A stretch of 64,000 nt of DNA from Lytechinus pictus. Its lineage: Eukaryota. Of this stretch, positions 33,301 through 59,611 are shown in pieces. The notes under the pieces are model-generated. The model worked only from the letters and a program-made list of their open reading frames with translations, was not told where the DNA came from and ran no database searches. A program made the translations under genes and the position numbers. The first letter of the stretch is position 1. Each line of letters starts with the position of its first letter. The stretch covers positions 10,356,001 through 10,420,000 of the forward strand of contig NC_087250.1 in the NCBI RefSeq assembly GCF_037042905.1, given 5' to 3'.

Positions 33301-36300
33301 TTTCCCCCACATCCGCCGTACAGCGGAAATCATTGTTTTTTTTTATTGTGTTTAACTATCTATTTATGACTACTTATACTTTATACTTGTCAATATCTGT
33401 TCTGTTGTATGAGAATTTTATTTGTATTTATGTATTTTTGTGAATTTTAAAGAGGTGTGAAATAAATGAATCTGTAATCTGAAACATTACCATGTGGAAC
33501 CGCCAAGCCCCCCAAATCAAAGTCAACTCGATATTAAAAAACCGATTTATACAAATATGGGACCAAAATTACTCGAGTTTGAAATTTGAGTTATGTTCAG
33601 GGGAACTCTTTCTGCATAAAAACCTATAAATGAGTTTGTTATGGATTCACATTGACCATGTGGAATTGCCAAGTCCACGAAATCCAAGTCAACTCGACAC
33701 TGAACCGATATAAATACAAATATGGGACCAAATTTACTCGAGTTTGAATTTTGAGTTATGTTCAGGGGAAATCTTTCTGCATAGAAACCTCTAAATGAGT
33801 TACTTTGTAATGGATTCAAATTTACCATGTGGAATTGCCAAGTCCACAAAATCCAAGTCAACTCGATACTGAACCGATATAAATACAAATATGGGACCAA
33901 AATTACTTGAGTTTGTATTTTGAGTTCTGTTCAGAAGAACTATTTCTGCTTTGGCGGCTAATCTCGAGTCTACAGGTTTTTTTCTTTTCTTTTGTGACAT
34001 TACCTGTTGCTTTTGTAATCTCATTTTCAGCAGAAGGAACTCCAGCCTCATCTGTGGTGGCCATTTCCATGACAAAAGCTTCGGCCTTGGTATCTGATTC
34101 CATGACAACAGCCTTCTCTTGCTGATCAGTAGGTGGCGCTTGCTTTTCTTCTGTAAAAATGAATAGCAATACCCCATTTAATTATGATGATAATAATTAT
34201 AATAATAGCTGGATTTATTAAGCGCTTTTTGCCCAAGGATACAGAGCGCTGCTATTATTACCCCAGCTTTAGCTGTGCTGCCAAATAGGGGCTGAAGTAT
34301 TCAAGGAATATCTGCCTACCGGGTACCGATTCACCTCACCTGGGTTGAGTGCAGCACAAAGTGAAACACTCACCAGGTAGTCCCTGTACAAAGCCTATGG
34401 GAATCACAGCATTCAGTATTCAAAACACATTTCTTACTAGACCTGGTGGGTGTTTCATAAAGCTGTTCGTAAGTTAAGAGCGACTTTAAGAACGACTGGT
34501 AAACCTTTCGTGTGGTAAATGGTATGTACCAAAATGTCCATTGACGATGGTTTAGCACGTAAGAAAGGTCACCAGTCGTTCTTAAAGTCGCTCTTAACTT
34601 ACGAACAGCTTTATGAAACGGCCCCCTGGAACCATTTATTTTTTCGTCCTAAAATGAAGATGAGTGCAATATTGGCCTAACGAGTGTCATATTTATGAAA
34701 TACCATCCAATATAATCACCATCGCTATTATATCATTGTTCTCTAGACCATGCACTGCACCACAAAAATGAACAGCATTGTTTTGTACCTAAGTCTGTGG
34801 GTAACTAGTCATATTTCTGTGAATCATTCAATACGCTCTGTTATTGCAGTCAAATCAGACAGACCAAAACACGGTTTTAACTCATTGGAGACGGACCCTG
34901 CATATATGCGTAGTTTCCTTCAGCAAGAAATTTATCCACATTGTGCTGCACTCAACCCAGGTGAGGTGGATGGGTACCTGGCAGGAATTTATTCCTTGAA
35001 ATGCCGAGCGCTGGAAAATCTGCTTGAGCTTCAGCCGGGGTAATAATATCCAAGTCCTTTGGAAGCGAATAGAGACGTTATTCATAATGTGTTATGCGCT
35101 ATACAAGAACTGACTATTATCATTATCATTATTATGCAGACTGGAGTCTATGAAAAACGTGTGTTATAGCAAAACCATTGGCCCGAATTCACAAAGGTGG
35201 TTTTGAAAACCATCGGTTTAAGTCATGGTTTATGCAGATTTCCTGTATAGATTAAGCTTATTTTCCACATATATAAAAAAAAAAGTCCAATGCTGATGCG
35301 CTCTTTTGTCACAGTGCACCAAATTGATGCCTGGTTGCCATGGTTAAGTACCCTATTTTATTTACGAGTGCACTGTTTGGAGAGTGGACTCATGAATAAA
35401 ATAGCGTGGATAACTAGGGCGACAGGCGTCAATTTGGCGCACTATGACAAAAGCGCGCATCAGCATTCATTTTGACATTGTTTAATATACGTGGTAAATA
35501 AGCGTAATTCATACAGGAAATCTGCATAAACCATGGGTTCAACCGATGGTTTTAATAACCACCTTTGTGAATTCAGGCCATTGAGTCTCCAAAGGGTTAA
35601 TGCACCAATGAAAGCCTCTATCCAGATAACACTCACCTTCATCCTCTCCTGCAGGCGCATCTTCTCCCGTTGCCAAAGCCTCGGAACTGGCTTCCTCGAC
35701 ACCTTCCCGAACCGGACCATCACCTTTCGGATTCTCTGTATCAATGACCACCTCATCGTCATCATCGTCATCATCGAGGGTTGGATCTTGGAGCATCGCA
35801 GGAATGGGCGTCTTGGGTCGGTGGGAGGCGTAGATACTCTCTCTCCTGGCTGGAGGTTCGATGGTCTTCGATGTGAAATGGACGCTGGCGCCGTGATGAA
35901 TGCTAGAGCCGCGTTGGATGCTGGAATGTTGGAAGTTGCTCGAGTCTTGGTGCAGGCCGACAGAGGAAGGTTGGCTTACCTCACCTGACATCATTAATGA
36001 TAAAAAAAAATCCTTATTTCATTGTTTGAAACAAAAATCAGAAACAGAAATTCTCAGAAAATTTGTTTTGCCCGATTAATTGTGGGCCTGGCAGCCACTG
36101 TGATGTAGCTCTATCCTATGTGCCAAACAGGGTAGCAGCAACTCCCAGCTTTTAACACCTTTTGGTCTAACGCGGGCCACGCGGGCGGGGTTTGATGGTG
36201 ATGGTGGGTGAGGGGGGCGGGGGGGGGGGGGGTAAGGTGTTGAATTCAAATACATGCACCATTTATTATTACATGGTAGGTAAAAAGATCTGTATTAGAA

Positions 36301-39300
36301 TGTTTTCTTTCGGACACATGTAATTAACAAACATTTTCAAAAGTTTCTGTTCAATTTCCCATTTAAAGCTAAATTACAGTAGTTGCAGTAAAACACTAAT
36401 TTCGTGAGAAAGTCTGTAAAACCAAAGTTAAGTATGACTATATCATCGTGGATCTAGATCTGGTACAGTTACATAAACTGAACTTTGTGAAATCATAAAA
36501 TCTAAGCTGAAATACGATCACACTGAAGATCGCCAACACATATAGGCACACGTGGGACAGTGTATTATTATTGCTGGAATAAAGACCCGACGGAAGTGAC
36601 CGAATCCGCGCTTATTTTGCTTTTTTCTCAGCAATTACACAATTTTTTCCAGAATCCTTTGGCACATATTTTTTATTCATACAAACAGACACTTGGGTGG
36701 TCATTATATTAGATTCTGTAAAAAGTCATTTTGAGATCGTTACCAGAACTGGAATTTACCTTTAAAAAAAATCTTACAGTCATAATTTTATTTTGTTATG
36801 GTGATGTATTTGATATATTTTTTTAAATAATGTAATACCCGAACTGTTCATATGATGAATGTACATTTGAATGTTTTTATTAAATGGAATGAATAAACAA
36901 ATTGAATTAAATTGAATTAGACTGATAGTTGTTATTGCCATAATGGGAGGTTGGCTTTACTAATTAACTAATGACTACTGGGCAGAATAGCAGAAAAGTT
37001 TGACAAGATTTTCATGATGGTAACTTGCCTTCAATTTTAAGTAACGTGGTAACAATGTTCAACTCGACAGCTCATAAAAATAAAGTTGACACTGAATGAA
37101 AAACTACCATTACAATCCTTCATACTGTCAGTCACCTTCCCCTATAAGATATCTAAAGGGAATATTACAAAATATGGGGGGGGGGGGGGAGGAAAGGAAA
37201 GAAGATGGATAAGAGTAGTCTGTATGTCCCCTTCCCCTCCATGATATTTTAAAGAAATGATTGATAAATATGGGGAAAAAGAAGAAAGGGAAATATTGTT
37301 GAAGGAACGAGCCGTCTCGACAATGGTCGGTTGTGAAGGTAATATAATACCAGTGGTTTTTTAAGAGACATGAAAATGAAATCATTTACAAGCCGTCTCC
37401 CGGCCCTTGTTCAACCCAAGTATTCTGTGACTTACTGCTAGGTGTTTCCTCGGGTGCCTGTGTACCATCTGACAAAGCCCCGGCTGTAAATCTCTCAATG
37501 CTCTTCTTCGATGACCGCCGACTAGCCGGTTCCGACGAGCTTTCGTGAGACGGGATGCTGGCGCTGGACTTGCGTGTCCCGGAAAAGACATGGCTGATGC
37601 GAGAGAACAGCCCGCTCAGCCCGCCCGAAGACTTCACCTTCTTCGATTTCCGACCCTTGCGGCTTTCGCCGTCCTCTCCGGAGCTGCTATCGGCGAGGTT
37701 CGGGGAGGCGTCGACAGAGTGCGTGGAGACCTCGCGCCTTGTGCTTTCTCTCTCTGCGGAGAGCGCCCTCTCTTGTGCCTCTTCAGCCGACTTGGATGAT
37801 GGAATAACCTGTTGCTCAGTATGATATGAAGTGGTAGCTTTCGGACTCTCTTCCGTTGCTGATACTGCAGCATCTGCACCACCTGTGCCATCAGCATCCA
37901 CCAAGGTATCCTGATGATCACCATCAGACTTGGTAGATCTACCTTCTGAGGTCTTTGCTGAGTGGACACCTGTAAGATACAGTATACAAATAATGCACGT
38001 AAGCGCGTGCATGCAAGGCCAAATAATGAACGATGTGCGAGAAGAGCCAATGGATATAAGTACCGCACCGAGGTCCGCAGGACCGATTGTGGTATATCAT
38101 TTGATGAGTCGAGCACAGAGTTCATTATTTAGGTCCTCTATGCACAAGAATGCTTACATTGTTTGTTTTATACAACCTCTCCCCCCTCCCCCATGTTACT
38201 GAGTTGCCCCAAATGCTATATTTGATCTTAATTCTAGATAATTCCAGACCTTGCACTATCCTGCACTCTACATCAGAGTGCAGGATGGTGCATTTTGGAT
38301 GCCAAAGTGCAATTCGCTGAATATCATGTGATCCAATTTGGACCAATCAGATTACAGAACATTCTTGGGAGTTGTATACATGTAATACAAATTATCACCC
38401 GTATCAGACATCTGAGCTGGTCATTAACAAAGTCGTATTGCCCTGCATTTTCTGAATATCAGGAAAGGATAGGTATATTGTTTGTATTTTCCTCGGTCTC
38501 AATGCGTGTATTGACTTTGCACGCACAGACGACGCAAAATATACCTTTGTATTTTCCCTGGTCTCACATCCGGGCCTTTGAGGATGCGAATAAAGTGATA
38601 CGCTCGATACGCTTCAAATGTTCCGCGCACCAACGATCTACGTCATAATAAAGACAACGCTGGATCTGGGCGCTTGCAAGTACGTCATAATGGTAAAGTG
38701 CAGAACCTAGACACTGATAGATCATGACACAACAGAACTCTATTCTTAAAAGATATCACTGTTATCATGATTTTTGCTCTAGATATCTGATTTGGATGAT
38801 AATAAAAGTATTGACTGCCCTTCTTTCGGGGAACATCAAATATATTGCCCTTAAAAGACCCATATTGCCCTCGTCTAAAGACTCGGGCCAATATGATTCT
38901 TTTGCTGGCAATATATTTGATGTTCCCCTCAAGACCAGTCAATATTATACAAATATCTCTAACCAGCATGTTGTTAATGCGCTGCCCACTGAAACTACTT
39001 GGTCCTTTTACAAAGCCAAAGTTGATTACAGAATTAAAGGGATGGTCCGGGCTGAAAATATTTGTATCTAAATAAATAGAGTAAAATTCACAGAGCAAAA
39101 TGCTGAAAATTTCATCAAAATCGGATAACAAATAACGAAGTTATTGAATTTTAGAGTTTATCAATATTTTGTGAAAACAGTTATTTGCACATCATCATGA
39201 GTATTCATTAGGTGGGCTGATGATTTCACATCCCCACTTTCCTTTCTCTTATGTTTGAATACATGAAATTATAAATGTTTCATTATTTCATACATGTGTA

Positions 39301-42300
39301 AATGATGTCTCCATTATGATGAAATAAGTTGTGGCAATAAATAACTAATACATTTAATCAGTTGTCAATCCAATTGTTTTAGTTCTTGGTAGAAAAATTT
39401 TGAAAAAAAACCACCTAATTTCATGTAATAAAATACAAAAGAACAAGTGCAGATATGACATCATCAGCCCACCTAATGAATATTCATAAAGACTTGCCTA
39501 GAACTGTGTCACCAAAATAATGCAAATCTTTAAAATTTCAATAACTTTGTTATCCGATTTTGATCAAATTTTCGGCATTTTGGTATGTGGATTTTACTCT
39601 ATTTATTGAGACATAAATATTTCCTGCCTGGACCATCCCTTTAAAGCATCTTCACTCACACATGCACACAGGTATGGGAAGCAAGTGTGAAGTAGAACTC
39701 TCAAATGGTCTTTTAGTTATCATGAGAACAATATATTTTCAAAGCGTATGCTCACCTCTGTATCAACTAGGGATGCCAGTTGGAATTGATCAGAGGGCCT
39801 GAAAATCACCTAGAATACAATATTTTGTACACAAAAATGCTAAAACTATGGCCTGAAAATAAAGTGCCAGAGCCTGATCAACTTTCATACCTCCTTGATA
39901 CCTTGATACCTCAAAATCTAATATGATGATATCAACTCATATAAAAATTCTTTGACTAAGTACGAGGTTGATCTGTCAAACACTCCTTTAGTTATTACAA
40001 CAAAATCGAGACAGATGAATGGACAACCTGAAAACATGTCTTTGGCAACCATCTACGGGCAAGGGAGGCATAAAAATGCTGCTAAGGTTGACTCGATGAT
40101 AAAGTAGTTCTCTAAAACCCAAGATAATCTTAGACATTGAATAGGAAATGCTTCCTTTTTTCAACGAGGTTTTGTTTCTATGGTTATTTGACAGATTCTA
40201 AAAGTATAAGACACTGACCATCATTACCAGGAGTGTCACTCGATTTCTTCTCAACTTGTTCTGGCTCGGCGTCAAGACCTGTCCTGGCCTGAAGTGGCTC
40301 GGAGGCAGGTGTGCCCTCAGCCTGGACCGACTCAGAAGCTAAAGTTGGCTCGGTGGCAGGAACTGTCTCAGTCTTGACCGGCTCAGTTGAAGGAGTCTCA
40401 GTCTGGACCGGATCGGGAGCAGGTTTGGGTCTCCTCTTGGTTGGCAGGTAACAAAGTCCCTCTGTTTCCTCCACGCCGACAAGAGCCTCGTCCGAATGCT
40501 TCTCCATGATGTCCTACAAGAGAACAGTTAGAGGGTCATGGGTTCAAATCCCAGCCATGGCGTGATTTCCTTCAGCAAGAAATCGATCCACGTTGCACTG
40601 TTCTTGACCCAGGCACAGTGAATGGGTACACAGTAAGAGAAATTCCTTGAATGCACTGAAGGCTGCTGATTAAGAGGTAATCGAGTTAAAGACTCTGGCA
40701 AAAAGCGCCATATAAATCCAGCTTTTATTATCATTAAAACAGAATTGTTATTGTCAAAGGAATTGATTCACTTTGATGAATGTAGAAAAAATTGTTTTTG
40801 AATTGTATGGGAGAAATACAGGATTCTCACTGTTAAATTGACCTCCCTTGCAGAAAGCCGTTCTTAGTAATAAGTAAACATTTAACGATCTGCATTATAC
40901 TGGAATGCTGTTCTAAAATACAAATCTTGCAAAGTGTAGCAACAATTACCATTTTTTCACACAAGCTGATTCTATGAAAAATGTGAGATTATGACTTTGA
41001 AAAGCTATAATACTTACTTGCTCCTCCTTTTCCAAAACCTCACAGACCATGTCCATCCCTGTCGGCAGACTGGCCGTGTGGCGGCTCGAGATGTCTTTGA
41101 CCAGGGTATCCCGAAGCATCCTGGCTGAACCCTGACAGTACGTCATGTCTGGACGGAAGATGTTCCTGAAGGAGTTCCTGGCAGCACACTTGCTCTTGCT
41201 GGGGAACTTCCCATCTGCCTCGGGTTTCATGGAGATCGCCGAGAGATGCGACTCCACCATGTGTCCTCCGACGTTGATCAGGTTCTTCTGGTAGATCGGG
41301 ATGATCGAGGAGTGGTCTTCGGGGATCTCCTCGCCTTCGTCTTCGGAGCTGCTTGATGAGGGCGCTGCTGGTTCCTCACGGGTCAGTCCGCTGCGGGAAC
41401 TTGATGCCTGATTGAAAACAGTTCGGACATGACGTCACCACTTACATGCCAGAATCTTGGGTCTTTTTATGGTGACACAACATTTGCTACGATCTTAATA
41501 TCTCAGGGGGTATAGGGTTAGAGTAAGGTCTGAAGAAGAGTTTTTGGGTTAGAATAATGTAAAGATAAGGATTAGGGTTTATTTAATTAATTTGGGAGAT
41601 CAGGTTTTAGGCTCAGCTTAACGTGCAGATTTTCCATCAGAGCAGTTATCGCCGGAACAATTGTCATGGAACCCTTTATATGAAGGCTTCGTATCAACAA
41701 ATTTCAATAACAAATTTTCAATCAGCCAATCAGAGGCTGACTGGAACTCTCCTTAGGGTGACATTGGATAGAATTGGCTCCTTGATTGTCTGCATGCCAT
41801 GATTTCTATCAACCAATAAAATTTAAAAGTAAAGGAATGTATTAACAGCAAACAATTATTTCAGGAGAAAGTCTATAAAATCAAGGTTAAATGCCACCAT
41901 ATAATGATAGATCTAGATCTGGTACATTGAAATAATCTTATCTTTGTAAAATCATGAAATATTTACTGAAAACCAATTATTTTGATGATCACTAACACAA
42001 AAAGACATACCCGGTTTGTGGAACTGTGGATAAATATTGTTTGGGAAAATACCAGACATTTTATGGAATCCGTTGCTTATTTTGCTCATTTCTCAGCAAT
42101 TCCAATTTTTTTTCCCCAGAGCCATTTGCAACAGAGTTTTCATTTATTTATACATACAAACACTTGGGTGGTCATTTTATTGGATTCTGTTCGAACTCAT
42201 TTTGAGATCGTTACCAGAACTGGTATTTATCCTTAAGAATATCAGTAGTTTCTAACAGTTGTTGGTGTAGCCTTACCCCTGACAAACTGCCTGAAACCCT

Positions 42301-45300
42301 CTCCAAGGTGACATCGGATAGAATCCTCTCAGTGATCGTCTGCGTGTCGTGTTCAGCAGTCAGCACAGCGCCCTCCATGACCAGGTGGCCGTCATCGGCC
42401 TTGTGCATGACCACGTGCAGGCCCTCGTCAACGTCGGTATCGCCCGAAGGGCCTCCGGCATGCTGGATCTCGTCCATGAGGATTGGGTTTTCCACGATGC
42501 CGATGACAGTATCGCCCTCTTCTTCGGCTTCGCTCTCGCTTTCACTTGAGGCTTGGGTGTGCGTGATGGACGGGATCGAGTCAACAGGTTCCTGATCAAT
42601 GTGAGAAAAGAACAGAAAGAGATAACTTGACGGGTGCTTGAGTGCAAGTGGCCAAAAACTATTCCTGCGCCACAGCCATTTCTAGTGAGCAAGACGCAAT
42701 GGACAAATGCCTACTTCAATTTACGGAAGCTTTAAAGTGACATCGACTTGTCGAGATAATTTACCTCGCCAATTTGACATATAAAAAGTAAATGGCAAGA
42801 ATATTTTTATCCACAGCTCGATCTATAGCACGCCATGCCACAACCAGGTTTCGTTTCAAACAGGAGGTGGTGCATGCACAACGTGGATGTCACATTAAAT
42901 CTCGCCATTTACTTTTTATAATCACTTTTACAACTTCTCATTGGTCGACTTGGCATCTTGACAAGTTGTTGGCACTTTAAAGCTTCCATTCAAATTTTCA
43001 AAGAATCGTCTGTTTACCTTAAAGATTTCAATGATGGATGAGAGATCCACTGCCTCGTCGGTCTCTTCACCAAGCCGGTCATCTAAATCATAGGATCTTT
43101 GACCTCCGTCACCCACTTCTTCTGCAGTCTGGATACGGGTTAGTGCGCCCTCTATGGCAGATGAGACAATGGTTCTGGCTAGCTCGGACGATGAAGGTCG
43201 CTAGTGTAAGAAAGTATGGTAAATGACATTAATTATAGTTTTTGTTTATATGCCACTTGAGTACTTATCCAATTGAAAAACAAAGAATAGGTTGCGGAAT
43301 AAAAAGTGGATAGAAATGGAGATGAATTGGAAAAGGACGAAAAAGTGGAGATTTTAAAGTAGATTATTCTTATCAAAATGAGTGTAGTCCTTAAAGGACT
43401 GTAAACGAGGAGGATTGGAAAGCCGTGTAGTAGACAAGCTTTCTCCACTTTCTCGCCTTTCCATTTCATCTCCATTTCTATCCACCTTTCCTATCTCAGT
43501 CCTTCCAGGACTTTACACATGGTGTTCCGTAAACCACCTCCGCAATTGTTCATACCACCATGCAAACCCAGTGGATTAGTCTTCTGACTTTGAATCAGAG
43601 GGTCGTGGGTTCAAATCCCAGCCATGGCGTAATTTCCTTCAGCAAGAAATTTATCTACATTGTGCTGCACTCGACCCAGGTGAGGTGAATGGGTACCCGG
43701 CAGGATTAATTCCTTAAATGCATGAGCGCTGAAAGGCCGGGGTAATAATAATAACGTGCCTCGGAATAGAATATTTCTAGATAGATGGCGCTATATAAAT
43801 GATTATTATTATTATTAATCTTTGCCAACTTATGTATCAGGTGACGAAACATATCGCTGCAGTTTACCTCATTCTTCACCATCTTCACAGGACTCGATGG
43901 ACGGACAATCTCAATGGCGCTTTCTAGAACTTTAGAGACGATAGACTGAGCCCTTTCTTCAATCGTGGAAACCTACCACAAAAGGAAAGAAGAAAATCGG
44001 CTCATACTCTTATAAATTAGGCTCATTTTTATATGCGGAAGGCATGACCAGATAGAATGATGAAGTGCGCCCTCCTAAACTTAAGATACAATAGATGGAG
44101 TCCTTTCTTCAATAGTGGAAACCCAACACAAAAGGAAAGACAATACCTGGCTCATGGTCCAAAAAGTAGACTCATTTTTAGGTTATGAAATGAAAATGAG
44201 GAAGAGATGACATAAGACGTTTTAAAATATGATGGAGTGGCCTCAACTTAAGAGGCTGTGTTGTTTTTTATATAATTTATATCGATATGATAAAGTGACC
44301 AAAGATTCTTCTTTATCCTGGATAAAATATGATTTTCCTTTCTACTTATTTTCATTTTACCTATTTTCTATCACTATTTGCAAATCTATCTACGATGGAA
44401 TCTGCAGCACAAGGTCAAAGTCAACCTTTCATAAAATCAGAATAATTGCGTAAACTGCGGTTTTCGCAGCAATCTAGGACAATCTAGTCCTGATAAAAAT
44501 CTTCTACGGTTCATGCAAAATTCTCATGAAGTTTTTCTGAATGCCGTGTGTATCTTTGATCATCGATAAACTTACACAATAAACACCGAAACAAGTGAAT
44601 AACATGACAGTTCCCATAAGAAGTCAATTCCACCCCTCCCCCTCAGAAAAAGGTAGATTTAAGTAAAACAGAAAAAAAATCAGCAAAGCATAATGCTGTA
44701 AATTTTGTCAAAATTAGATGATCACAAAAAAAGGTTATGGATTATTAAAGTTTTGCTAATTTTCACATAAGAGTTTACACACACAACATGGGCAATATGC
44801 AAATGAGAGAATCAATGATAACACACAGTTGTGGACAAAAGGTTAAAATAAAAACAATTGCCAATTGTTCAAGGAGGGATCCAATTTTTGTTTCACATGA
44901 TAATGAGGGGGAAAAATGTTATATACAATAAAATACAAAATAGTTAGTGGGGGACATCATTGGTTCCATAACTGGCATATCAACTGGTACATGTATGTGC
45001 ATATACCAGTTTTGTTAAATCTTGTTTTGTTAAATTTCAAAATGTCTTAACTTTTTTTTATTTCACATCCGATTTGGATGAGATTCTGTGTGTTAGCTTG
45101 TTTGATTTTTCCAATATTTAAATCAAATTTTGGTTTGGGTGAACTTGCCCTTTGAATATGGTAAATTATCAATTCCTCCACTGCCAACTCGTCCACTCAC
45201 CACATGGTCTACTTTCATTTAGCCTAATGCCATTACGTCCATCAACATTTCATCTAAACAACCGTTTGATCCAATAACCATTTAGTCCAATCATCATTTC

Positions 45301-48300
45301 GTCTATTCACCATTTCATCTATGACCATTTCGTCTCGTAACCAGTTGGTCTAGTATCCATTTCATTTTCATTCATTTTGTACAATTAACACTTACTAGCC
45401 CAATTGGACCAAATGGAACACGGACTAAATGGCTATTGGACCAACTGGTTATTAGACAAAATGGTGAGTGGACGAATTGGCAATTAGACCATGTGGATAG
45501 TGGACGAACTGATGGTAGACCAAATAATAGCAGACGAGTTGGCAATTGGACGAACTGGCATTAGACGAATTGGAAATAAACCTTGCATACATACCTGCAT
45601 CAAGGAAGGTTGCGTGTCTTCTACCTGGTTCAAGACATTCTTCAAAGCATCGGCAACCATCAGGCTAGCGTAAGGACTGACCTCACTCGCCTAGTAAGAG
45701 CAAGAAAAACAAGAATAGACGGTCAATATTCATCTGGGGGGGGGGGTATTTAACAAGGACTTGAGTGTGCGTTAAGGCCACCGCACACCTTACGATCCGT
45801 CTGGCCTACGACTGGCTTGCGACTGAGTGAGTAGAGATGAATCGCAAGGCAGTCATAATCATAAGCCTCGACACTGCACATCTTGCGATCCGACTGCCAT
45901 GCTGTCTGCGACTCACGCACGCGCTTTATGCTTTTTGCCATAGCAACTGAGAAAATGGCGCTTACGACTGTGTATGCACGTTGTACACCATAAACATGTA
46001 TGCGTCGTGCAACTCTGCTGTGTGATTGGCTGGAAGTTGGATTGAGCTTGCGATCCAGTCATAAGGATTCGACATGTCAAATCCTTACGATTTTCCTTGT
46101 GGCTTGTCTCTGACCGGTCTGCGACTCTCAAGCTGACAAGAGCTGTGACGTCACTCAGTCGCAAGCCACTCGTAGACCAGTTGGGTCGTAAGGTGTGCGG
46201 TGGCCTTTAAAGTCATGCTTAAATGCTAATGCGCACAAGATATGTAAAATGCATATTATTCATGAACTCTTTCTTATTCGCCGTTTGTATAAACAGAAAT
46301 GCGACAAATATTTTGTAAGTCATGCAGATGCTTTTCTGCAAAAATAAATTGTGTGATTTTAGATGAAAGAAAGTTGTTCCAGTATCAGGTACCCTTTTAA
46401 CAAGATACTTACATCAATGAAGACATCAGGACCACCAGACCTATAAAAGAACAAAACAAAAAAGAAATTACAATTATTTGAATGACGTATGCGTGAAGAG
46501 TAGTTATTACTACTTCTACTACTACTTATTTTACTACTTTTTTGTTTTGTTTTTACTACTCAATCACAAAAGGTTATTAAAATCAATAGCAAGTGGTAAG
46601 GAAGGAATCAAACCTAGTGTCACATTAAAATGAGGAAAGAAAAAAAAAAAGACATTTCAATGCAAAACTTAAAAATTAAAACTAAGCAGAACTTTGAAAT
46701 ATAATAACCATTTTCAAAATCTTACATTAGGAATTTTGATGGAATATTCAGCATTAGGCATATTGTAAACTGCAGGCAAGCCGGTCTTAATTAAGCCAAT
46801 GAAAGTTGGGACGGGTGGGTTCATAGATTTAAGCATATATTTATCCATAAAAGATAATTGAAAACCAATATTAGTTAAAAATTTTAGTTAAGCAAAATAC
46901 TGAATAAAATACTGAATATTCTGATTTAAGTATCGGATTGAATGTTGGCCCGGGGATTGCTGGAAAAGCAAATTTGAAGTGGGTAAATAAAATGTTATTA
47001 TCAATTAATGTTTTCACCACCTCTCTGATGGAGATCGATCCTTCTGTCCATCCATCTTCCATGTGCCATCGTTTCCCTCTTCCCATTCCACGTCATCGAA
47101 CTCTGGATCAGATTTCAGCTCCTTGAAGACGCCGGTGACGAGTTGCCTAGCAACCATGGTGAAGGAGTCCAGGACCTCTGGCATAGATACAGGAGCATCC
47201 CCCATAGACACAACTGAGATATTAAAAATAAAATAAATAAATGAATAAATACATGAGATTTGTATAGCGCACTTTCCATCTTGATTAGATGCTTGAGAGC
47301 AGAACAACAAAAACTATTTACATATAATACATGTCTGAACAATAAGTCAATGTCTATAAAAAAAAAACACTCTTATACAGGTATGTTTTCAGGTTGCCCT
47401 TGAAGGTGGTCACTGAAGTCTGGGTTTTCAAACTCTGTGGGAGAGAATTCCACAGGCTAGGCCCGATCCCCGCATGATTTCTTAGCAACTGGAATTTGTA
47501 AGAGATTAGATGATGAGGATCGAAAATTTCTTGAGGGTTAGTAATTATGCATCAAAGACCTATTGTAAATACCAGTTGTGGTAAAATCTCAAAATGAGTT
47601 TGAACATAATCCAATAACATGACCACCCAGGTGTTGGTATGTATAAATACAATATATGGGCCAAATGACTGGAAGAAAATTTGTAATTGATGAGAAATGA
47701 GTAAAATAAGCACAGAATTCAATCAAATGTCAGGCATTTTCCCAAATAATATTAATACTGTCCTACAAATGCTTTTCTGTGTTAGTGATCATGAGAATTA
47801 TGGGTTTTGAGCTAAGATTTCATTTCACAAAGAGAAGTTTACATTACTGTACCAGATATAGAAATATGATAATACGGTGACAATTAACCTTGATTTAAAA
47901 GACTTTTTCAGGAAATAATTTTTGTTGCAACTTTCTTTTATCTTTAAAGAGAAATAATGCTGCCAATTTATGCGTTTTGTTATACATGGCACACTAACAC
48001 TCATTATGAAGTTCTTGTTATACAGATAAATGATTAATCCTTATTCTTCCCGCATTGTGATGTCACTCTTTCACATTCATCTAGTGAGACTGGGCGACGT
48101 CATCATCAACACCATCGCATCACAGCCATCATCTCAATCATCGTATCATTGTGTTCATTATCATCATCATTATTATTATCATCACCATCGTCACAATCAA
48201 TGTATCACAATCATTACCACCATCATCATCATCACCGCCATCATCGTCATCATCATCGTCAACATCATAACCATCATCATCATGATCACCACTATCATCA

Positions 48301-51300
48301 TCATCACTATTACCATCATAATCATCAAGATGTTGCCTGTAGTCCCAGGCTCAAACTCTTCCACAATGGTCATCATCACTATCAACATCATCACTGTCAT
48401 CAACCTCATCATCACCGTCATTATCATCATCATCATCACCATTATCATCATCATCATCATCATCGTCATCATCGTCATCAATTATCATCACCATCATCAT
48501 CATCACCATTATCATCATCATCACCATTGTCATCATCACCATTATCATCATCATCATCATCATCACCTACATCATTATCACCACCATCATCATCATCACT
48601 ATTACCATCATCAAGACGTTGCCTGTAGTCCCAGCCTCAAACTCCTCCACAATGGTCATCATCACCATCATCATCACTGTCATTATCCTCATCATCATCA
48701 TAATCAAGATATCACCTACCTGAAGTCGGAGGCTCAAACTCCTCCACTATGGTGACAATCTCCTTGGAAAACTCTAAAAAGATGATAAATAAACCCACAA
48801 AAATATAAAAAAAGGAGATAGAAAATGCTATAGAATTTTTGCTTGTATGATCATACAGACAATATATGTCATAGAAAATAAAGAGGCATTAATAGGAGGA
48901 AATTATAATTTGTAAACAAATTTTCGGCATTACTCCTATGTGGAATACCACTGGTTCCATTTTTTTCTGACTTATGATTCTCATTACAAATCGAGCATGC
49001 GATCTTAAACACATAGGAGTAATGCCGAAAATTTGTTTACAAAAAATAATATATGTCATCATAAAAGTGAAATAAATGAAATAAATGAAGTGAATGAATG
49101 AACAAATGGAGAGGGAAAAATTAAATTAGGCAATTCTATACTGAAACCATTTATTTTTTCCTGGTTGGAAGTTGAATTCCAAAGATTTGCATTATTTCTG
49201 TGAAACAGTACTAGGCATGTCTTTATGAATATTCATTAGGTGGGCTGATGATGTCATATCCCCACTTGTTCTTTGTATTTTATATGAAATTAGGTTTATT
49301 GAAAAATTTTCTACCAAGAACTTAAAACAATTGGATTGAAAACTGATTAAGTGCATTAGTCATTTATTGCCGCAACTTATTTCATCATAATGCAGACACA
49401 TAATTTACACAAGTATGAAAAAATTGAACATTTATTATTTCATGTAATAACATAAGAAAAGGGAAAGTGGGGATGTGACATCATCAGCCCACCTAATGAA
49501 TATTCATGATGATGTGCATATAAATGTTTTCACAAAATATTGATAAATTTTAAAATTCAATAACTTGGTTATTTGTTATTCGATTTTGATGGAATTTTCA
49601 GCATTTTGCTCTGTGAATTTTACTCTATTTATTTAGATATAAATGTTTTCAGCCCGGACCATCACTTTAAATGATCAATGTGTTACCTGAGGATTTAACA
49701 GAAGGTAGAGAGGATGTTTCATAGATGACAATAGAGGGCGGGCCACTGCGACGTCTGTCTACTCCTGATTCATCTGAAAACGATCACAAAATGAAAATGT
49801 TAAAGCGACAATCACAATAGATGGTGGCCCATGACGGTCTTCAAACTGCCATAAACTGTGCATCATCATCATCATCATTCTCACCATCCTCACCGTCATC
49901 ATCATCATCATCATCACCACCACCACCATCATCATCACTATCACCATCATTATCATCATCATCATCATCACCATCATCTCAATTACCATCAACATCAGCA
50001 TAACCATCATCATCGCCATCATCATCATCATCACCATCACCACCATCACCATCACCATCATCATCATCATCACCATCACCATCATCATCATCATCACCAT
50101 CATCATCATTATCATCATCCTCATCACCCCCACCTGAATAGATGATTGGAGGAAGCTTATCAGTACTAGTGGTAGTGGATCCCGTCTCCTCTTTCTCCTT
50201 GCAGAGTTTCTCTTTCACATTCCATGTTGTCATGTTGGTTGTCAGCTTGGGATTGATCGGTGGAAACCTCCTCCTCCCGCCTAATGGTAAGAAAGACAGT
50301 AGAGTACAGGGCCCTGTCTCACAAAGAGTTACGATTGATCCAATCAACCACAACTATGGAAAGCCAGCAACGCCAATATCTATAATACATGTTTGTTCAT
50401 ACATTTCCTAGATCAGCTGTGTATTCATGCATTCATTGCTTTCTTGAAAATTTGCCGTGCTCCTCTTTGTTTACAAATGACACGGTGCAAATTTCCTGAA
50501 GAAAAAAAATATGTTGATGGATTTCCATATACATGTACTTGAGGTTGATCCGAGCAATCGCAACTCTTTGTAAGACAGGGCCCCGAAGTATGGCATCACC
50601 AATTTTCCTTTATTTTGCATTTTTCCATTCTTTATACCAAATTTCAGTAGAGCATGATGAAAAACCTCCACAACACAAATTCGGTGGGAATCGGTCCATG
50701 ATGTCTCAAGATATGAATTCATAGTTTATAGCCCCGCAGAAGCCAATGTATCATTGGCCTGTACAGACCGCACAGAAACGTTTGTTAGCACTTACAACAC
50801 ACCAACAGAGGCCCTGTTACAATCGGTAATGTCGCAGCGATGCCTTATGCCACAACAATGCGTTACTTACATCTTGGATCAAAGTTTAGCTTAAAGGACA
50901 AGTCCACCCCAACAAAAAGTTGATTTGAAAAAAGGGAGAAAAATCCAACAAGCAAAACACTGAAAATTTCATCAAAATCGGATGTAAAATAAGAAAGTTA
51001 TGACATTTTATAGTTTTGCTTAATTTCTCAAAATAGTTATATGCACATCCAGATCGGTATGCAAATTGGCAGACTGATAACGTCATCCACTCACTATTTC
51101 GTTTGTATTTTATTATATGAAAAATGAAATATTCTAATTTTCACCTCCTTGTCAAGTGACACAAAGTTTTATTTCTGCCTGAACATGTGGAATTACCATT
51201 ATTTTAATAGTTTATGGTTAAGTTAAGTTGGTCCTTATTGTCAAATCTGTAAAAATTGAAATATTGTATTATTCAAACAATAAAATACAAAAGAAATAGT

Positions 51301-54300
51301 GAGTGATGGACATCATTGACTCTCTCATTTGCTTATCACTGAGTTGTGCATTAACTGTTTTGTGAAAAATAAGCAAAACTTAAAAATGTCATAACTTTTT
51401 TATTTTACATCCGATTTCGATGAAATTTGCAGCGTTATGTTTGTTTGATTTTTCTATATCGATTCAAATGAACAATTTTCTGGGGTAGACTTGACCTTTA
51501 ATTATCTGATAGATGTGACTGAACCTACTGTTAGCGATCTGTTAGGCTAACAGCGTTTCCGTGCGGCCAGTACTGGTTCATAAGAGGCCAATAATACATT
51601 GCTTTCAATGGGGCTAATTACATGCATGTCTTCATGGTTCCAATCTTGGGTCCACATGTCCTTTTCATATTCCTGTTCTGCACCGAGGTGTTAATTTTTT
51701 ACCTTGTTATATTTCTACAATTTTGCAGTGGTATTTTTTTTTTTTTCTAATGCATCTCAAGATTATCTAATTAATTATTTTGGCACCCTTTTCAGTATTC
51801 CCTTTTTTGACGTGCAATATTTTGTGTAAGAGTATTTATATATTTTATTTATGTCTTGGGAGCGGCATGTGTGGGGGCTCATGCCTTCGGGCAACAGTGA
51901 TGGATTTCGCTTTTGTGCCCCCTGACCCACATGCCGTTCCCGCATTTCTTTGCATGTTCATGTACTGTAATTTTTTAATTCTAATGTAATGTGTATGTAC
52001 TTTTTATATTGGTCAAATAAATAATAATAATAGTAAGGTTTTGAATTTATAACGTTATATACGAGCAGGTACCCCATATATCTCGTAATATGATTTCCAT
52101 AAATTCATTTTTTTAAATGAAACATGATGAATAAAGATATTATATAGAAGGGAGTATAAATGATGTGCCTAGCGATGTAACTTTTTAAAGTGAAATAACT
52201 TTCAATTTATTGAGAAAATTGAATTATGAGGAATTTATATCTTACAAAGTTACGATCGATCCAATCAATCATAACTATGGAAATCCATCCATGTCATATT
52301 TTTATCTACAGTTAATTTGCAAAATGTCCTTTGTAAACAAAGGAGAACACACCAAATTGTCAAGAAATCAATGAATTTATGGATATGCATTCATACATAG
52401 AAATTTCTTTGAACAAACATGCATTTTATATGTTGACTTTGCTGGCTTTCCATAGTTGCGATTGATCGGATCGATCGCAACTCTTTGTAAGATGGGGCCC
52501 AGTATTACAAAGAATTACGATTGATCCAATCAACTTAAAGTCTATGGAAATCCAACCATGTCATGATTTTTATCTCCAGGAAATTTACATGTCTTGTCTA
52601 AATAAGGAAAAGCACACTGAATTTTCGAGAAAACAATCAATGCACATCATATCAGTAAAATATTCTGAACAAACATGCATTTTAGATGATGACATTGCTG
52701 GCTTTCCATAGTTGTGGTTGATCGGATCAAGCATAACTCTTTGTAAGACGGGACCCAGAAAATCTAAATTCTTAAAATTTGTAATTCCATTGTTCTTAGA
52801 TAGATTTTCATCAGGTATTCACCAATATCTATTTTTTTTTTCTTCATTTTTCTGCATTAATCACGGTGAACTTCCCCTTATGAGTCAACTTCCAAATACA
52901 GCCTGACCCCTTTCATACTTACGTTTCGGTCCTGCGGTGTATTTACGGCACAAGTCCTCTACTTTCTTCTCAAGTCGCTCACCAACGAAGACCTCCTTTC
53001 GTAAAGCCGACTTTTGTCTATATTCTCTAATACTGGTGAGATAATCTGCGAACAGGAAAACAACATGACTTTTTGTTCTTTATCACAGCACCCTACATGG
53101 GAATCGGTGATACAACATTTGCTCCTGCAACATTAGTCCAGATTGGACCTTGTTGTTTGGAAGTGCCCTTTTCAAAAGCTAACATAGAGGGCACATGTCT
53201 CCCAATCTCTAATCAGCGCCAATCCACTCATCTTGGGGAGGGAAGATGAGTGGATTGGTGCTGATTAGAGATTGGGAGACATGTGCCCTCTATGTTAGCT
53301 TTTGAAAAGGGCACTTCCAAACAACAAGGTCCAATCTGGACTACTGCAACATTTGCTACAGTCTTAATATCTCAGGGGCATATGGTTAGAGTTAGGGTTG
53401 AAATAGAGTTTTTGGTTCAGAATTATTAAGGATTGGGGTTTATCTAGTGGTGGAGGTTAGGTTTTAGGTTCGGCTTAACGTGCAGATTTTCCTTCGGAGC
53501 AATTGTCGCCAGAGCAAATGTCATGGAACCTGGAAATCAATGGCCTGCGCCCAGTGTTGCGTTATAACAGGGGAAATGAACTATTCTCGTCTTCTATTTG
53601 AATTCATCTCTTACTTTGTATTCATTTATTATTTCATTGCATTATGTATTTCTCTATCAATTCAATATTTTACCTTTTCACTTACTCATTAGTAGTTCCT
53701 TTGTGTATCGATCTTAAATCTATCGTTTATATTTTATTTCATTTATCTATCTTTCTGGTGAATTCTCTTCTACATTTACTCAAGTACTAGTGTGGGTTTC
53801 TGTTGATCAGTTTTAAAGTTATATATAATTCTAAAACTTAGAATGATCTCTATCAAAGTCAATAAAAATCTCAAAATTCATTTTGGTGACTTATTGTAGC
53901 TTTGAGGTGGCAGGTCACATATTTTTTAACATTAGTGTTTGCTCAGTAGAGCATTCAAGCCCCGGCGGCATCAAAACAAATTGTTAAAATATGGGAAAAT
54001 TATTGCTACCCTGTTTGGTGTTCAACGATTTAAAGGAGAATGAAACTCTTGGAGCAAGCTAGCTTTTGTGAAAGCAGAAAAATCAAAGAATAAGATCAAC
54101 AAAAGTTTGAGTAAAATAGGACTAGCAATAGAAGAGTTATGAGCATTTGAATGTCGAGATCACTAATGCTATGGAGATCCTCCGATTGGCAATGCGACCA
54201 AGATCTATGATGTCACAGATGAACAACTCTCCCCTTTTGGACACTGAAAATATACCCCAAAACATCTCTTTTTGCTCATTCTAATCATATGACAAACGAT

Positions 54301-57300
54301 TCATCAATGATATAATGTTGTGAAACCTCTGTACTTGTCCTCTCATAAACAGAACACCTCACCTTGTGATAGACTCTATAAAAGTGAGAATATAAGTGAA
54401 ATAAGTACTAAAGTAATGAGGGAGTTGTACGTGTGTGACATCACAGATCTTGGTCGCATTGCCAATGGGAGGATCTACAAGGCATTAGTGATCTCGACAT
54501 TCAAATGCTCATAACTTTCTTATTATTCATTCAATCTTCCTCAAACTTTCAACAATATGTTTCTTTGATTTTTCTCTTTGATATGGATTCAGCTGGTTTC
54601 AAGGGTTTCATTCTCCTTTAATATCTCAGGGGCATATGGTTAGAGTTAGGATTGAAATAGAGTTTTTGGTTCAGAATTATTAAGGATTAGGGTTTATTTA
54701 GTGGTGGAGGTTAGGTTTTAGGTTCGGCTTAACGTGCAGATTTTCCTTCGGAGCAATTGTCGCCAGAGCAAATGTCATGGAACCTGGAAATCAATGGCCT
54801 GCGCCCAGTGTTGCGTTATAACAGGGGAAATTAACTATTCTTGTCTTCTATTTGAATTCATCTCTTACTTTGTATTCATTTATTATTTCATCGCATTATG
54901 TATTGCTCTATCAATTCAATATTTTACCTTTTCACTTACTCATTAGTAGTTCCTTTGTGTATCGATCTTAAATCTATCGTTTATATTTTCTTTCATTTAT
55001 CTATCTTTCTGGTGAATATTCTTCTGCATTTACTCAAGTACTAGTGTGGGTTTCTGTTGATCAGTTGTAAAGTTATATATAATTCTAAAACTTAGAATGA
55101 TCTCTATCAAAGTCAATAAAAATCTCAAATTTCATTTTGGTGACTTATTGTAGCTTTGGGGGTGGCAGGTAACATATTTTTTAACATTAGTGTTTGCTCA
55201 GTAGAGCATTCAAGCCCCGGCGGCATCAAAACAAATTGTTAAAAGATGGGAGAGTTATTGCTACCCTGTTTGGTGTTCAACGATTTAAAGGAGAATTAAA
55301 CTCTTGGAGCAAGTTAGCTTTTGTGAAAGCAGAAAAATCAAAGAATAAGATCAACAAAAGTTTGAGTAAAATAGGACTAGCAATAGAAGAGTTATGAGCA
55401 TTTGAATGTCGAGATCACTAATGCTATGGAGATCCTCCCATTGGCAATGCAACCAAGATCTATGATGTCACAGATGAACAACTCTCCCCTTTTGGACACT
55501 GAAAATATACCCCAGAACATATCTTTTCGCTCATTCTAATCATACATGTATGACAAACGATTCAGCAATGATATAATGTTGTGAAACCTCTGTACTTGTC
55601 CTCTCATAAAGAGAACACATCACCTTGTGATAGACTCTATAAAAGTGAGAATATAAGTGAAATCAATCAGTGTCATAATTTTTTCAACAGGAAATTTGCA
55701 CAATGTCCTGTTCGAACAAAGAGAAGCGCAGTGAATGCATGAATATACATCATAGCTAGAAAATATTTTGGACACACATGCATAATAGATGTTGATGCAG
55801 ACCTGCCAACCTCTGGGAATAAAGAACTGTATTCTATGATAAAAAAAAACTGTATTTTTCTCCAAAAAAGTGTATTTCATAATAAAATGCTTGGCGCACT
55901 TGCTCATCACGGCGCTCAAGCTGCGTGCACGCTAAAATGCGCACTGCTCTTGCAGATGAAAAAAACAACATTAAAACATGTGTATATCTTCACCCTGGTT
56001 TGAACAAAATGATTGGAAAAAAAAAAAAAGTTACCTGAAATTACATTGATCTAATAACCATATTTGTGCACGTTTTATGAAATAGAGACATATAGAGATT
56101 ATTATTATTTTTTTTTAATCAAAAACGTATTTTTCAAAGAAAAAAAGTACTGCCGTATTTTGGTTGCAAAAACGTACTAAATACGGCTAAAACGTACTGG
56201 TTGGCAGGTCTGCAGAGGCTGCTGGGCCAATGATCAATTGGACAAAGGGAATTTTGAAAGGATTTATGTTTCTGATTTCTATCTCCAAAAAAATAAAATA
56301 TGTTTTTTTTTCTTTGTTTTATGGAATTAATAATGATAACTTAGTCATATATACCGCTTTACAATGTAGAAATTTGAAATATTCAAACAAAAGTGATTTA
56401 GAAATTATGTAACAATAAATTTTAAAAACATCAAGGTCACTGTAAATGGAGCTATGAATATGCCTTTTCATGAGATAAGTCTTTGAATTGGATCTGAACA
56501 ATGTGATATTGGGGATGCAACGAACGGAAGAGTATTTCAAAGATGTGTGCAAAGCTTGAAAAGGACCTATCACCAAAAATATGTAGTTTTTGCTTCTCCG
56601 ATAGTTAAGTAATGAAGGGACATACTGGGAATGTATGCCAGGATTAATTCAGAGAGATATTTTTTTGGAGCATGTCCATGAAGAGATTTGATTGTTTGAA
56701 GAACGTTGAACTGTATGCGTGATTTGATGGGGAAGCCAGTGCAATTGTTTAAGAGAAGGTATTATATGCAGACCTGCCAACCTTTTACAAAAAAAAAGTA
56801 TTCTTAGAAGGAAAAAAGAGTATTTATTGGCAAAAAAAGGTATTTTTAAAACTTTGTCTCAATGTAACGATCGCCAGCCTGTTGTAGTGAGATCGGTAAA
56901 AAAACATGTGAAATGACTCTACAGGTGTACTTGAAAACTTGATAATTCACCCTTTTAAACATGTGCTCGTACGCAAGAATTTACTTGTTCTTTTCATGCA
57001 ACAAGTTACTGGCCCGACAGTGATTTTTACCGGTCTGGGACCGTCGGACCGGCGCTAGTGTCACGCACTGTGTATAATACATACTCCATGATTGGAAAAA
57101 TAACAAATCATACAAAAAAAGTATTGGTGTATTCATAGCAAAAAAGAGGAACAAATACTCTATAAAGGGAACGGTTGGCATGTCTGTATGTGGTCATGTT
57201 CTTTAGTGAGGGAAACTAGACGGGCTGCCGAGTTTTGAAATCTCTGCAGCCTTGAATTATACAGAAGTGCATGGTCACCTTCCTGCGTTTCCCATTGCTT

Positions 57301-59336
57301 AGCAACCATTTCCTCCCTCCTTAGCACTCGCTCTTGCATCTCCTCTTTCTTCTGAGCCTCCAGGAGTTTTTCTCTCATCATCCTCTTCGCCCGGGCGAGT
57401 TCTCGACGAGTCCATTGGTCTTCCAACTGTAAAGTCACGACAGGCAAAGAAAAATATTTTTTTATTTTCAGGGGCTACTTTTAACAACCTACTGCCTAAC
57501 TCTGCAACATTGGACAAGCATTAACATGGCAGTGAATAGGCATTATTCCGAGGCTTTATTTAAAAAAAGAAATTTCCATGGCTTGTTGCTCATTTTTTTT
57601 TTAAATTAGATTTTTCTTAATTTGATTTCTTTTCTTTTCTTTCTTTCTTTCTTTGTTTTTTTCTTTCTTTCTTTCTTTCTTTATTTAATTAATTATTTAT
57701 TTATTTATATATTTATTTCATTATTTATTTATTTATTTATTTATCTAACTATTCATTTATCTAATTAATTGATTTTCATTTATTAATTTTTTCTTAATTT
57801 GATTTATTTATTTACTTAATTCATTTTTTTTTTTTTTTTTTTTGGGGGGGGGGGGCGGGGAGGGAATCACCCCGAGCCCTTCGGGACAATTTTTCCCCTG
57901 GTCAGGGGGAGTTTGTAAGAACAGTTGCATTACTCTAGCTTTTAATCCAATTAGTCCACTGATCTTCAACTTTGACAATGTTTACATTGCCCCCAAAATG
58001 GATAACAAACAGAGGTTTGAACCCTTACTGAAACACCTTTAAGCCTCAAAATGGCAACACTAGCATTTACATTCATCGCTGCATATTATCCTTAATTTTC
58101 ATGATGGTGCTATAAATTTGAATTAAAAAAAATCAATTGCTTCCTGATTATTTTGAATTACCCTTTTCTCCTTTTCCTCCTCCTCCTTTTCATGTTGAGC
58201 TTTCAGTTGCTCCTCTCGTCTGATCTCCTCCGACGTTCTTTTAGCTTTGATCGAGTTCTTCTTTAATTGAGCCTGTTATGATTGAGAGTCAGGGTTGAAA
58301 AAACAATTGTACATCTAAGTTGCATTCTCTATTCTCTTAAAGGACAAGTCCACCCCCCAAAAAAATTGATTTGAATAAAAAGAGAAAAATCCAACAAGCA
58401 TAACACTGAAAATTTCATCAAAATCGGATGTAAAATAAGAAAGTTATGACATTTTAAAGTTTCGCTTATGTTCACAAAACAGTTATATGCACATCCTGGT
58501 TTATATGCAAATGAGGAGACTGATGACATCATCCACTCACTATTTCTTTTGTATTTTATTATATGAAATATTCTAATTTTCTCCTCATTGTCAAGTGAAA
58601 CAGTGATTAATTCCTCCCTGAACATGTGGAATTAGCATTGTTTGATAGTATATGATTCAGTCAAGTCGGTCCCTACGGTCAAATCTGTAAAAAATGAAAT
58701 ATTGTATAATTCAAACAATAAAAAACAAAAGAAATAGTGAGTGATGGACATCATCGACTGACTCATTTGCATGTCACTGAGTTGTGCATTTCATTGTTTT
58801 GTGAAAAATAGGTGAAACTTTAAAATGCCATAACTTTCTTATTTTACATCCGATTTTGATGAAATTTTCAGTGTTATGCTAGTTTGATTTTTCTCTATTT
58901 ATTCAAGTCAACATTTTGCTGGGGTGGACTTGACCTTTAAGTATCAATAAAATGGGTAATGGCCAAACAGTGTCTCATTTTAAGAGAGCAAATATTGAGT
59001 AAAACAAGACACTATTTTATGAGTAAATCATTTTAATGCAAGGGTTGACCAAGGTTTATTTTCATTTTTTTTTTCAATGTTCTTTTGAATTCTTTTTTTT
59101 TTATATACACTGTAGCTCATGACCACAACATTCATAAAATTGTTTAAAAAATAATGAAATATACATTATATCTACCGGTAATCATCACAACCATCACCGC
59201 CATTATGACCCTCAACATGCCACTATCACTTTACTATCATCAAAATCAAAACTATCACCACCACTATCACTATCACAATCATCATCATTACCATCATCAT
59301 TATCATCATCACTGCCATCACCAACTTCACCATCAC

Positions 59337-59377
<41 letters not shown>

Positions 59378-59390
59378 CCATCATCATCAC

Positions 59391-59423
<33 letters not shown>

Positions 59424-59579
59424 ACCCATCATCATCATCACCACCATCACCATCATCATCATCACCATCATTTATCATCATCATCATTATCATCATCACC
59501 ATTTTCATCACTACCACCACATCATCACCATCATCATCATCACTGCCATCACCAACTTCACCATCACCATCATCATCAT

Positions 59580-59611
<32 letters not shown>

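Follow-up and report, generated by a model that had tools for sequence, protein, structure and literature searches.

Here we report the analysis of a stretch of 64,000 nucleotides from Lytechinus pictus (RefSeq assembly GCF_037042905.1, contig NC_087250.1, positions 10,356,001 to 10,420,000; hereafter the window), whose minus strand carries part of the gene for a protein listed in RefSeq as "mucin-2-like isoform X2" (P0002, 1588 aa). Four exons of this gene, here called J, K, L and M, each encode one amphipathic helix that fits the 17-residue frame of the helices by which A-kinase anchoring proteins (AKAPs) bind the regulatory (R) subunits of protein kinase A (PKA). Our favoured reading, to which we give a probability of roughly 0.4, is that these are independent docking helices for D/D (docking and dimerization) dimers. 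The A/I/V-rich face of each helix would sit in the groove formed by a docking domain of the RIIa or Dpy-30 type, a dimeric four-helix bundle; the candidate partners would be PKA RII or RI, SPA17-like and similar proteins. Such a protein would act as a multivalent scaffold that interacts with D/D domains, presumably in cilia or sperm flagella. We infer the docking itself, the choice of partner (M, and then L, being the best RII-type candidates), the multivalency and the cellular site from the features set out below. Scaffolds of this kind are already known, namely multivalent AKAPs (PMC12083921) and ciliary D/D-interacting proteins (PMC12203939).

Four helices in four exons

A first-pass annotation of the window had placed four AKAP-like peptides between 43018 and 47213, one in each of exons J to M, and all four were found at those places in open frames of the minus strand. 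They follow one another in P0002 in that order (aa 278-292, 339-353, 368-387 and 405-423), the annotated interval runs from the lower boundary of exon M to the upper boundary of exon J, and the distribution of one helix to each exon was borne out by the exon map and the splice sites. Exon J (47021..47213, 193 nt, aa 260-324), delimited by the exact exon map and its splice sites, holds the 17-mer SFTMVARQLVTGVFKEL at 47116-47166 (aa 276-292). It is followed by a mini-exon of 28 nt (46413..46440, SGGPDVFID), which brings the phase back to 0, and exons K (45595..45690, 96 nt, aa 334-365), L (43868..43972, 105 nt, aa 366-400) and M (43018..43200, 183 nt, aa 401-461) are all of phase 0-0. Their helices comprise the 17-mers YASLMVADALKNVLNQV in exon K (45622-45672, aa 340-356), RAQSIVSKVLESAIEIV in exon L, where the helix covers 43904-43966 (aa 368-388), and LARTIVSSAIEGALTRI in exon M (43132-43182, aa 407-423), the last preceded by the cap RPSSSE. 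Exon N (42277..42591, 315 nt, aa 462-566) is acidic and opens the conserved region of the protein. The six exons, with the mini-exon included, lie on the minus strand and have canonical AG/GT sites throughout. A separate short hydrophobic helix, LSSIIEIFKE, is encoded at the 3' end of exon M (43018-43050) and is kept as far as starfish (ILLANVMNILEE).

RNA-derived contigs of three public runs from one study bear out the splicing: joints M-N, L-M and K-L were present in all three runs, and K-mini and mini-J in two of them, and every contig joint was GT..AG-ended on the minus strand. A raw-read RNA run, of which about 6% was read, had no depth on the exons and is not counted as evidence. Exon M has a single match across the 812-Mb assembly, and the intron-less contig form is therefore RNA-derived and does not come from a retrocopy in this assembly. 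The gene is single-copy in L. pictus.

All four peptides had been said to fit the pattern A-x-x-h-V-x-x-[AV]-h-x-x-[ALV], with h a hydrophobic residue, and indeed P0002 matches it at residues 281, 341, 373 and 408 and nowhere else. Shuffling of the whole protein gave a mean of 0.011 matches, four being reached in 0 of 20,000 shuffles, and shuffling of aa 260-461 alone gave at most one. The stricter pattern hh..hh..hh..h has five matches, all inside aa 280-423 (shuffle mean 0.10; five reached in 0 of 5000). Across the protein family described in the next section, 36 strict frames were counted in 27,819 residues, with 0 to 6 per protein, versus none in the 18,928 residues of 53 RII proteins. A relaxed count of helices with 7 of 8 face positions was dropped as evidence on account of its lack of specificity, giving 2.52 per 1000 residues in the family versus 1.85 in the RII proteins.

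The face of an AKAP helix consists of positions 2, 5, 6, 9, 10, 13, 14 and 17 of a 17-residue frame (PMC12083921). Scoring against this frame, which the first-pass annotation had proposed as a check, gave a hydrophobic residue at all eight positions in each of the four helices, over five turns and without a proline in the 17-mer. The faces read FVALVVFL (J), AMVALVLV (K), AIVVLAIV (L) and AIVAIALI (M) and contain no charged residue; R subunits need five helical turns, and a charged face residue is a negative determinant for PKA binding (PMC12203939). RIIa-binding helices are built of hydrophobic-pair repeats (PMC3494852), and those of exons J to M are likewise composed of them. An AlphaFold2 run on aa 236-722 with 8 sequences (mean predicted local distance difference test score (pLDDT) 34.4, predicted template modelling score (pTM) 0.19) placed helices, at low confidence, at aa 276-294, 339-359, 367-388 and 404-426, with little other structure in this acidic stretch.

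A repeat module and its family

A profile of aa 236-722 retrieved 20 proteins among 1.84 billion representatives. Those that carry a name belong to echinoids, asteroids, holothuroids, crinoids and the hemichordate Ptychodera, with no vertebrate among them; by this profile the family does not extend beyond echinoderms and a hemichordate. A word-based homologue search with aa 255-470 returned no proteins beyond Lytechinus, an atlas search with aa 262-430 gave no usable match, and six full-length family members gave no Pfam family at E<=0.1. One member, P0072 of Holothuria leucospilota, has a Pfam Gp5_trimer_C match at aa 2228-2276 (33.6 versus a cut-off of 30.9 bits), which is probably a low-complexity repeat and no phage domain.

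As the sequences of P0069 and P0067, two family members, showed, the helices of exons J to M are diverged copies of one family-specific module, made up of a Ser/Thr/Pro-rich cap and a five-turn helix. The consensus over 44 units has the cap R-K-T-P-S-N and then h-A-R-x-h-[AV]-x-D-[AV]-h-x-[DN]-A-x-x-[ED]-L. A repeat-unit hidden Markov model (HMM) seeded from these two proteins detected 18 units in P0069, of which 17 form an array and one belongs to the conserved core. It counted 14 units in P0067 and also 13 in P0070, a protein outside the seed, and had no match in the 53 RII proteins. Applied to P0002 it found M (aa 400-428, independent E-value 1.5e-4) and, marginally, K and L (0.43 and 0.95), and helix J was undetected. 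There was no match in Diadema, crinoids and Holothuria because their helices are too diverged for the HMM.

Within this module family L and M are, by their alignment scores, exon duplicates. The local score of the L. pictus pair was 37 (P=0.002), that of the Diadema pair 54 and that of L. pictus M with Diadema L 56, the latter two each reached by 0 of 2000 shuffles. Helix K is marginally related to L (P=0.04) and M (P=0.017), and J had no detectable relation to the other helices in this local-score comparison. Among the relatives the tandem copy number ranges from 0 to 17, with array periods of 26-36 residues. A tree of the conserved core, which omits P0080, a protein without the anchor motif, has two clades (supports 93/94 and 89/96) in each of which paralogues rich in array units stand beside paralogues poor in them, so that copy number is labile.

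Conservation of the hydrophobic face was a further check proposed for the four helices, and its outcome was in their favour: between L. pictus, S. purpuratus and Diadema, 46 of 48 face positions are hydrophobic. The identical positions number 27 of 48 on the face and 25 of 54 among the polar ones. In starfish only an M-like helix aligns, with 7 of 8 face positions. The helices of the urchin proteins are joined by long linkers in which Pro, Ser and acidic residues abound, and the J-K linker of about 45 residues is acidic and poorly conserved.

The invariant family motif RNSFRNIFRPDMTYCQGSA is encoded by the conserved core exon (41018..41407, minus strand, aa 567-696). The invariant core motif (...RPDMTYCQGSARMLRDTLV...) of this exon also holds the helix that the repeat-unit HMM scored in P0069. 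Further downstream the exon at 37434-37967 (aa 796-973) encodes a C-terminal motif conserved family-wide, GLSGLFSRISHVFSG, a short amphipathic stretch of which similar copies occur in Diadema, starfish, P0067 (twice), P0069 and P0010.

Proposed independent docking and its alternatives

The first-pass annotation had quoted Ht31 and AKAP-is as reference peptides. Both are printed in PMC4526808 (Table 1), AKAP-is in identical form and Ht31 inside a longer form of 22 residues. The close alignment claimed for L and M was reproduced (8 of 21 residues identical between L and Ht31, 7 of 17 between M and AKAP-is), and J and K were much weaker, with 2-5 identities. The best P0002 window for AKAP-is is M (score 30; mean 3.3, standard deviation (SD) 5.9) and the best for Ht31 is L (score 32; mean 5.5, SD 6.1). 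A, I or V occupies seven of the eight face positions in L and in M, compared with eight in Ht31 and seven in AKAP-is. A profile of the 44 repeat units, with no AKAP sequence included, was run against class-preserving decoys and scored AKAP-is (P=0.025) and AKB-RII (P=0.014) above them, with AKAP-is aligned in the same register. From their sequences, M and L would be reasonable docking candidates and J and K weaker ones.

Possible receptors are encoded in the L. pictus genome, which contains five RIIa-type exon matches above the Pfam cut-off and five Dpy-30 exon matches. One of the RIIa-type matches is PKA RII, as confirmed via named homologues, and two others resemble SPA17 and RI.

A predicted alternative form of exon M bears on the autonomy of its helix. 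An internal acceptor-like site, CACTAACCCGTATCCAG followed by ACT, was recognised in the sequence of the exon (43128..43146, minus strand), and its use would start the exon at 43128 and drop aa 401-424, that is the cap and helix M, alone. The L. variegatus RefSeq model P0003 joins exactly at the same CTAAC...CAG acceptor, whose L. pictus counterpart lies at 43129/43128, and the S. purpuratus RefSeq model P0005 likewise is without helix M alone. In the L. pictus contigs the short form starting at 43128 was not seen, and the long form was present in three of the three runs.

We favour independent docking because the frame fits exactly, the face is conserved and the urchin linkers are long, acidic and variable, and also because copy number is free to vary and the models P0003 and P0005 are without helix M alone. 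An obligate bundle would not be expected to have any of these properties. Packing of the helices into an intramolecular bundle had been named in advance as an outcome that would speak against docking; the AlphaFold2 model has four separate helices and no confident packing, which, given its low confidence (pTM 0.19), is weak evidence for independent docking.

A number of results weigh against docking. In 3000 pattern-preserving shuffles, with amphipathicity and composition fixed, likeness to six published anchoring peptides was ordinary for J, K and L, both with RII-type peptides (P=0.24, 0.42 and 0.75, respectively) and with RI-type peptides (P=0.08-0.40); M exceeded its shuffles at P=0.015, a significance that is lost after correction for 8 tests. 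The likeness would mostly be what any A/I/V-rich amphipathic helix gives. The unit profile did not favour Ht31 (P=0.54), RIAD (0.16) or AKB-RI (0.44); P<0.05 was obtained for two of the six peptides and, after correction, for none of the six. By sequence, the PDB entries closest to the cap plus helix M are the designed helical-repeat proteins 8f6r (E 0.015) and 5cwp (0.021); no AKAP peptide was among the matches to helix M, and helix L had no match. The hydrophobic moment of M is 0.19 versus 0.39-0.50 in the published peptides, and the net charge of the 17-mers is 0 to +1 versus -1 to -3. The arrays of P0069 and P0070 repeat regularly every 34 residues or so, with short linkers that are 32-38% hydrophobic, which would suit a folded repeat. 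The unit shows fair conservation at some of its polar positions (R at 3, D/N at 12, E/D at 16), whereas AKAP polar faces are described as poorly conserved (PMC12083921). A single 7-of-8 helix is present in Patiria-1 and in Acanthaster; P0010 and the Ptychodera protein lack one altogether.

The remaining objections concern FSIP2, the sperm protein to which the first-pass annotation had likened the product of this gene. Matches to the FSIP2 Pfam family PF15783 were obtained for the core exon of the window (18.3 bits, E 6e-4), P0068 (16.6) and P0005 (9.7), all within one stretch of the profile (positions 581-654) and all below the gathering cut-off of 27. Moreover, echinoderm sperm are without a fibrous sheath (PMC11276731). 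A six-frame search of the genome with PF15783 gave no match, nor did the control genomes, and it carries no weight. The label "FSIP2-like" has weak support: these sub-threshold signals point towards it, as do the top atlas match of the Diadema N-terminal domain, a cluster named FSIP2 (0.89, a lead only), and a Holothuria family member called FSIP2 by its depositors; the Pfam cut-off was never reached. On these weak indications we call the family FSIP2-like only with reserve.

The likeness to vertebrate FSIP2 lies in this weak core match in three family proteins, and the differences are considerable. The protein has about 1,600-2,500 residues, whereas human FSIP2 has 6,907 (PMC11276731). Mammalian FSIP2 is described as a binder of AKAP4 and AKAP3, not as an anchor (PMC11276731; PMC11506864), and AKAP3 and AKAP4 are said to appear only together with the fibrous sheath (PMC11276731). 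A literature link of FSIP2 to helices of the present kind was not found in the Creative Commons part of PMC and bioRxiv, and FSIP is unmentioned in the accessible parts of PMC12083921, PMC8339350, PMC12203939 and PMC12167957.

Sequence alone cannot separate a helix that docks a D/D domain from another packing helix, a point made equally for RSP3 (PMC3494852). In the principal alternative, somewhat unlikely in our estimate, the helices would pack on each other, within or between molecules, as a bundle or helical repeat of structural or oligomerising function, with the AKAP-like pattern as a packing signature. The designed repeats retrieved with M have a PSSS-type cap and an A/I/V helix in common with it, small residues (S, S, T, G) form the polar face of M, whose hydrophobic moment is low, and the K-L and L-M spacings are alike in Lytechinus and Diadema; the unexceptional shuffle results for J, K and L, the regular arrays of P0069 and P0070 and the conserved polar positions fit packing as well. 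Against it stand the copy number of 0 to 17, with single-helix members that cannot bundle alone, the two models lacking only helix M, the long and variable acidic J-K linker, the low-confidence AlphaFold2 model without packing, the single hydrophobic face of each helix, and P0069, which found no PDB sequence match at E<=1. The proteins 5cwp and 8f6r are, furthermore, compact two-helix repeats with fixed short loops, whereas the unit described here has one helix, with variable linkers and copy number.

It is clearly unlikely that the helices dock to a partner other than a D/D domain, such as another flagellar or cytoskeletal protein or the conserved core of the family itself. Modular, conserved amphipathic helices would fit such a partner equally, the D/D-specific evidence is weak, the conserved R3, D/N12 and E/D16 suggest that more than the hydrophobic face is recognised, and the invariant core itself holds a helix of the same general kind. 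The partners described for mammalian FSIP2 are AKAP4 and AKAP3, not D/D proteins (PMC11276731, PMC11506864). These two, however, are said to come only with the fibrous sheath that echinoderms do not have, no result pointed to a candidate partner, and L and M closely fit the D/D-binding frame in their face positions and A/I/V composition.

Binding to membranes or lipids is very improbable. Apolipoproteins, with their proline-punctuated tandem helices, offer the comparison, and the urchin protein resembles them in its tandem amphipathic helices of about 20 residues with Pro- or Gly-containing linkers between; its faces are Ala/Val/Ile-rich, large aromatic and Leu residues being scarce in those of L and M, its flanks are acidic and not basic, its mean hydrophobicity is low, and no Pfam search returned a signal peptide or membrane feature. 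A basic amphipathic helix of the calmodulin-binding type was set aside, the helices of exons J to M being neutral and their flanks acidic. That the helices are residual secondary structure without specific function in a fast-evolving low-complexity protein, as the Lytechinus-only word-based search and the low AlphaFold2 confidence might suggest, is hardly credible against a pattern count reached in none of 20,000 shuffles, a face kept hydrophobic at 46 of 48 positions across urchin lineages, and a module kept and amplified in several echinoderm lineages.

Set beside known systems, the helices share with the PKA-anchoring helices Ht31 (of AKAP-Lbc) and the synthetic AKAP-is the five-turn frame and the A/I/V-rich face; the urchin helices, which are candidate anchors, are less acidic, and M has a low moment. 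With RSP3 and the D/D-interacting proteins (DDIPs), a class defined by binding RIIa or Dpy-30 domains and not PKA (PMC12203939; PMC3494852), they share hydrophobic-pair helices in a non-kinase scaffold that presumably belongs to cilia or flagella. In sequence the protein is unrelated to RSP3 and the named DDIPs, and there are four helices in the urchin and up to 17 in its relatives versus one or two. The multivalent AKAPs AKAP220 and SKIP also have more than one anchoring-type helix per polypeptide, a property that is putative in the urchin; they have two validated sites of independent origin, whereas the urchin candidate sites are tandem duplicates, one per exon (PMC12083921).

If the helices of this family do bind D/D domains, the family would itself act as an anchor and be more than a partner of AKAPs. 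No anchor described so far would be more multivalent, and this one would occur in animals with sperm that lack a fibrous sheath. It would also provide a concrete starting point in L. pictus for the origin of the sperm-tail AKAP/R2D2 network. The mechanism of FSIP2 is inadequately understood, and its loss leads to severe sperm-tail defects (PMC11506864). A broader and quite doubtful proposal is that FSIP2-family proteins were ancestrally polyvalent D/D-domain scaffolds, whose 4-17 AKAP-type helices would cross-link RIIa/Dpy-30-type dimers, among them PKA R subunits, SPA17 and ROPN1L, to form a lattice in the flagellum. The arrays would have grown by exon or unit duplication, the mammalian fibrous sheath, with AKAP3, AKAP4, R2D2 proteins and FSIP2, would be a derived form of this lattice, and in urchins the alternative acceptor in exon M would take out one site and so adjust valency. 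Whatever the mechanism, the family has a previously undescribed repeat module and is an unnamed protein family of echinoderms and a hemichordate.

The gene model and other features of the window

P0002 was identified through a match of exon translations, and 23 minus-strand exons of the window, from 60146 down to 27155, match it letter for letter in an exact exon map. The part of the gene inside the window spans 27155..64000 on the minus strand and comprises these 23 exons and further 5' exons; the gene runs past the high end of the window. The P0002 model begins at 60146, and the gene continues upstream with at least four more coding exons. The upstream coding sequence, located by tblastn with the Diadema N-terminus, lies at 60039-60185, 61398-61490 and 63483-63581 of the window and at 189-362 and 1877-2032 of the next 10 kb just past its high end (L005). 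The two 5' coding exons at 63483-63581 and 61398-61490 (minus strand), which are absent from the P0002 model, are 73% and 71% identical to the Diadema protein P0006, respectively. Together the upstream exons encode a conserved N-terminal domain that is 71-76% identical to that of Diadema and is also present in starfish orthologues. The P0002 gene model is N-terminally truncated and misnamed "mucin-2-like".

The databases hold two sequence variants of the protein for each Lytechinus species, P0001/P0004 versus P0002/P0003, which differ for instance in helix M (SSEQAKTIVS... versus SSELARTIVS...). Given the single copy of exon M, P0001 may be an allele or derive from another assembly.

The introns contain three foldback or MITE-like (miniature inverted-repeat transposable element) inverted-repeat elements, at 45774-46207, 43302-43489 and 45167-45529, the first with arms of 57 nt at 91% complementarity. 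Two Rfam plant-miRNA matches, far below their gathering scores, were treated as chance matches on foldback repeats. Contig depth is very high at 43568-43738, where there is a tRNA-like B-box motif; ARAGORN predicted no tRNA in the 42-48 kb region. Long triplet microsatellites occupy introns at about 30270-30860, 48030-48760, 49760-50350 and 59140-60180. They yield long open frames on both strands with His, Asp, Met and Ile runs, which are no coding exons of the model.

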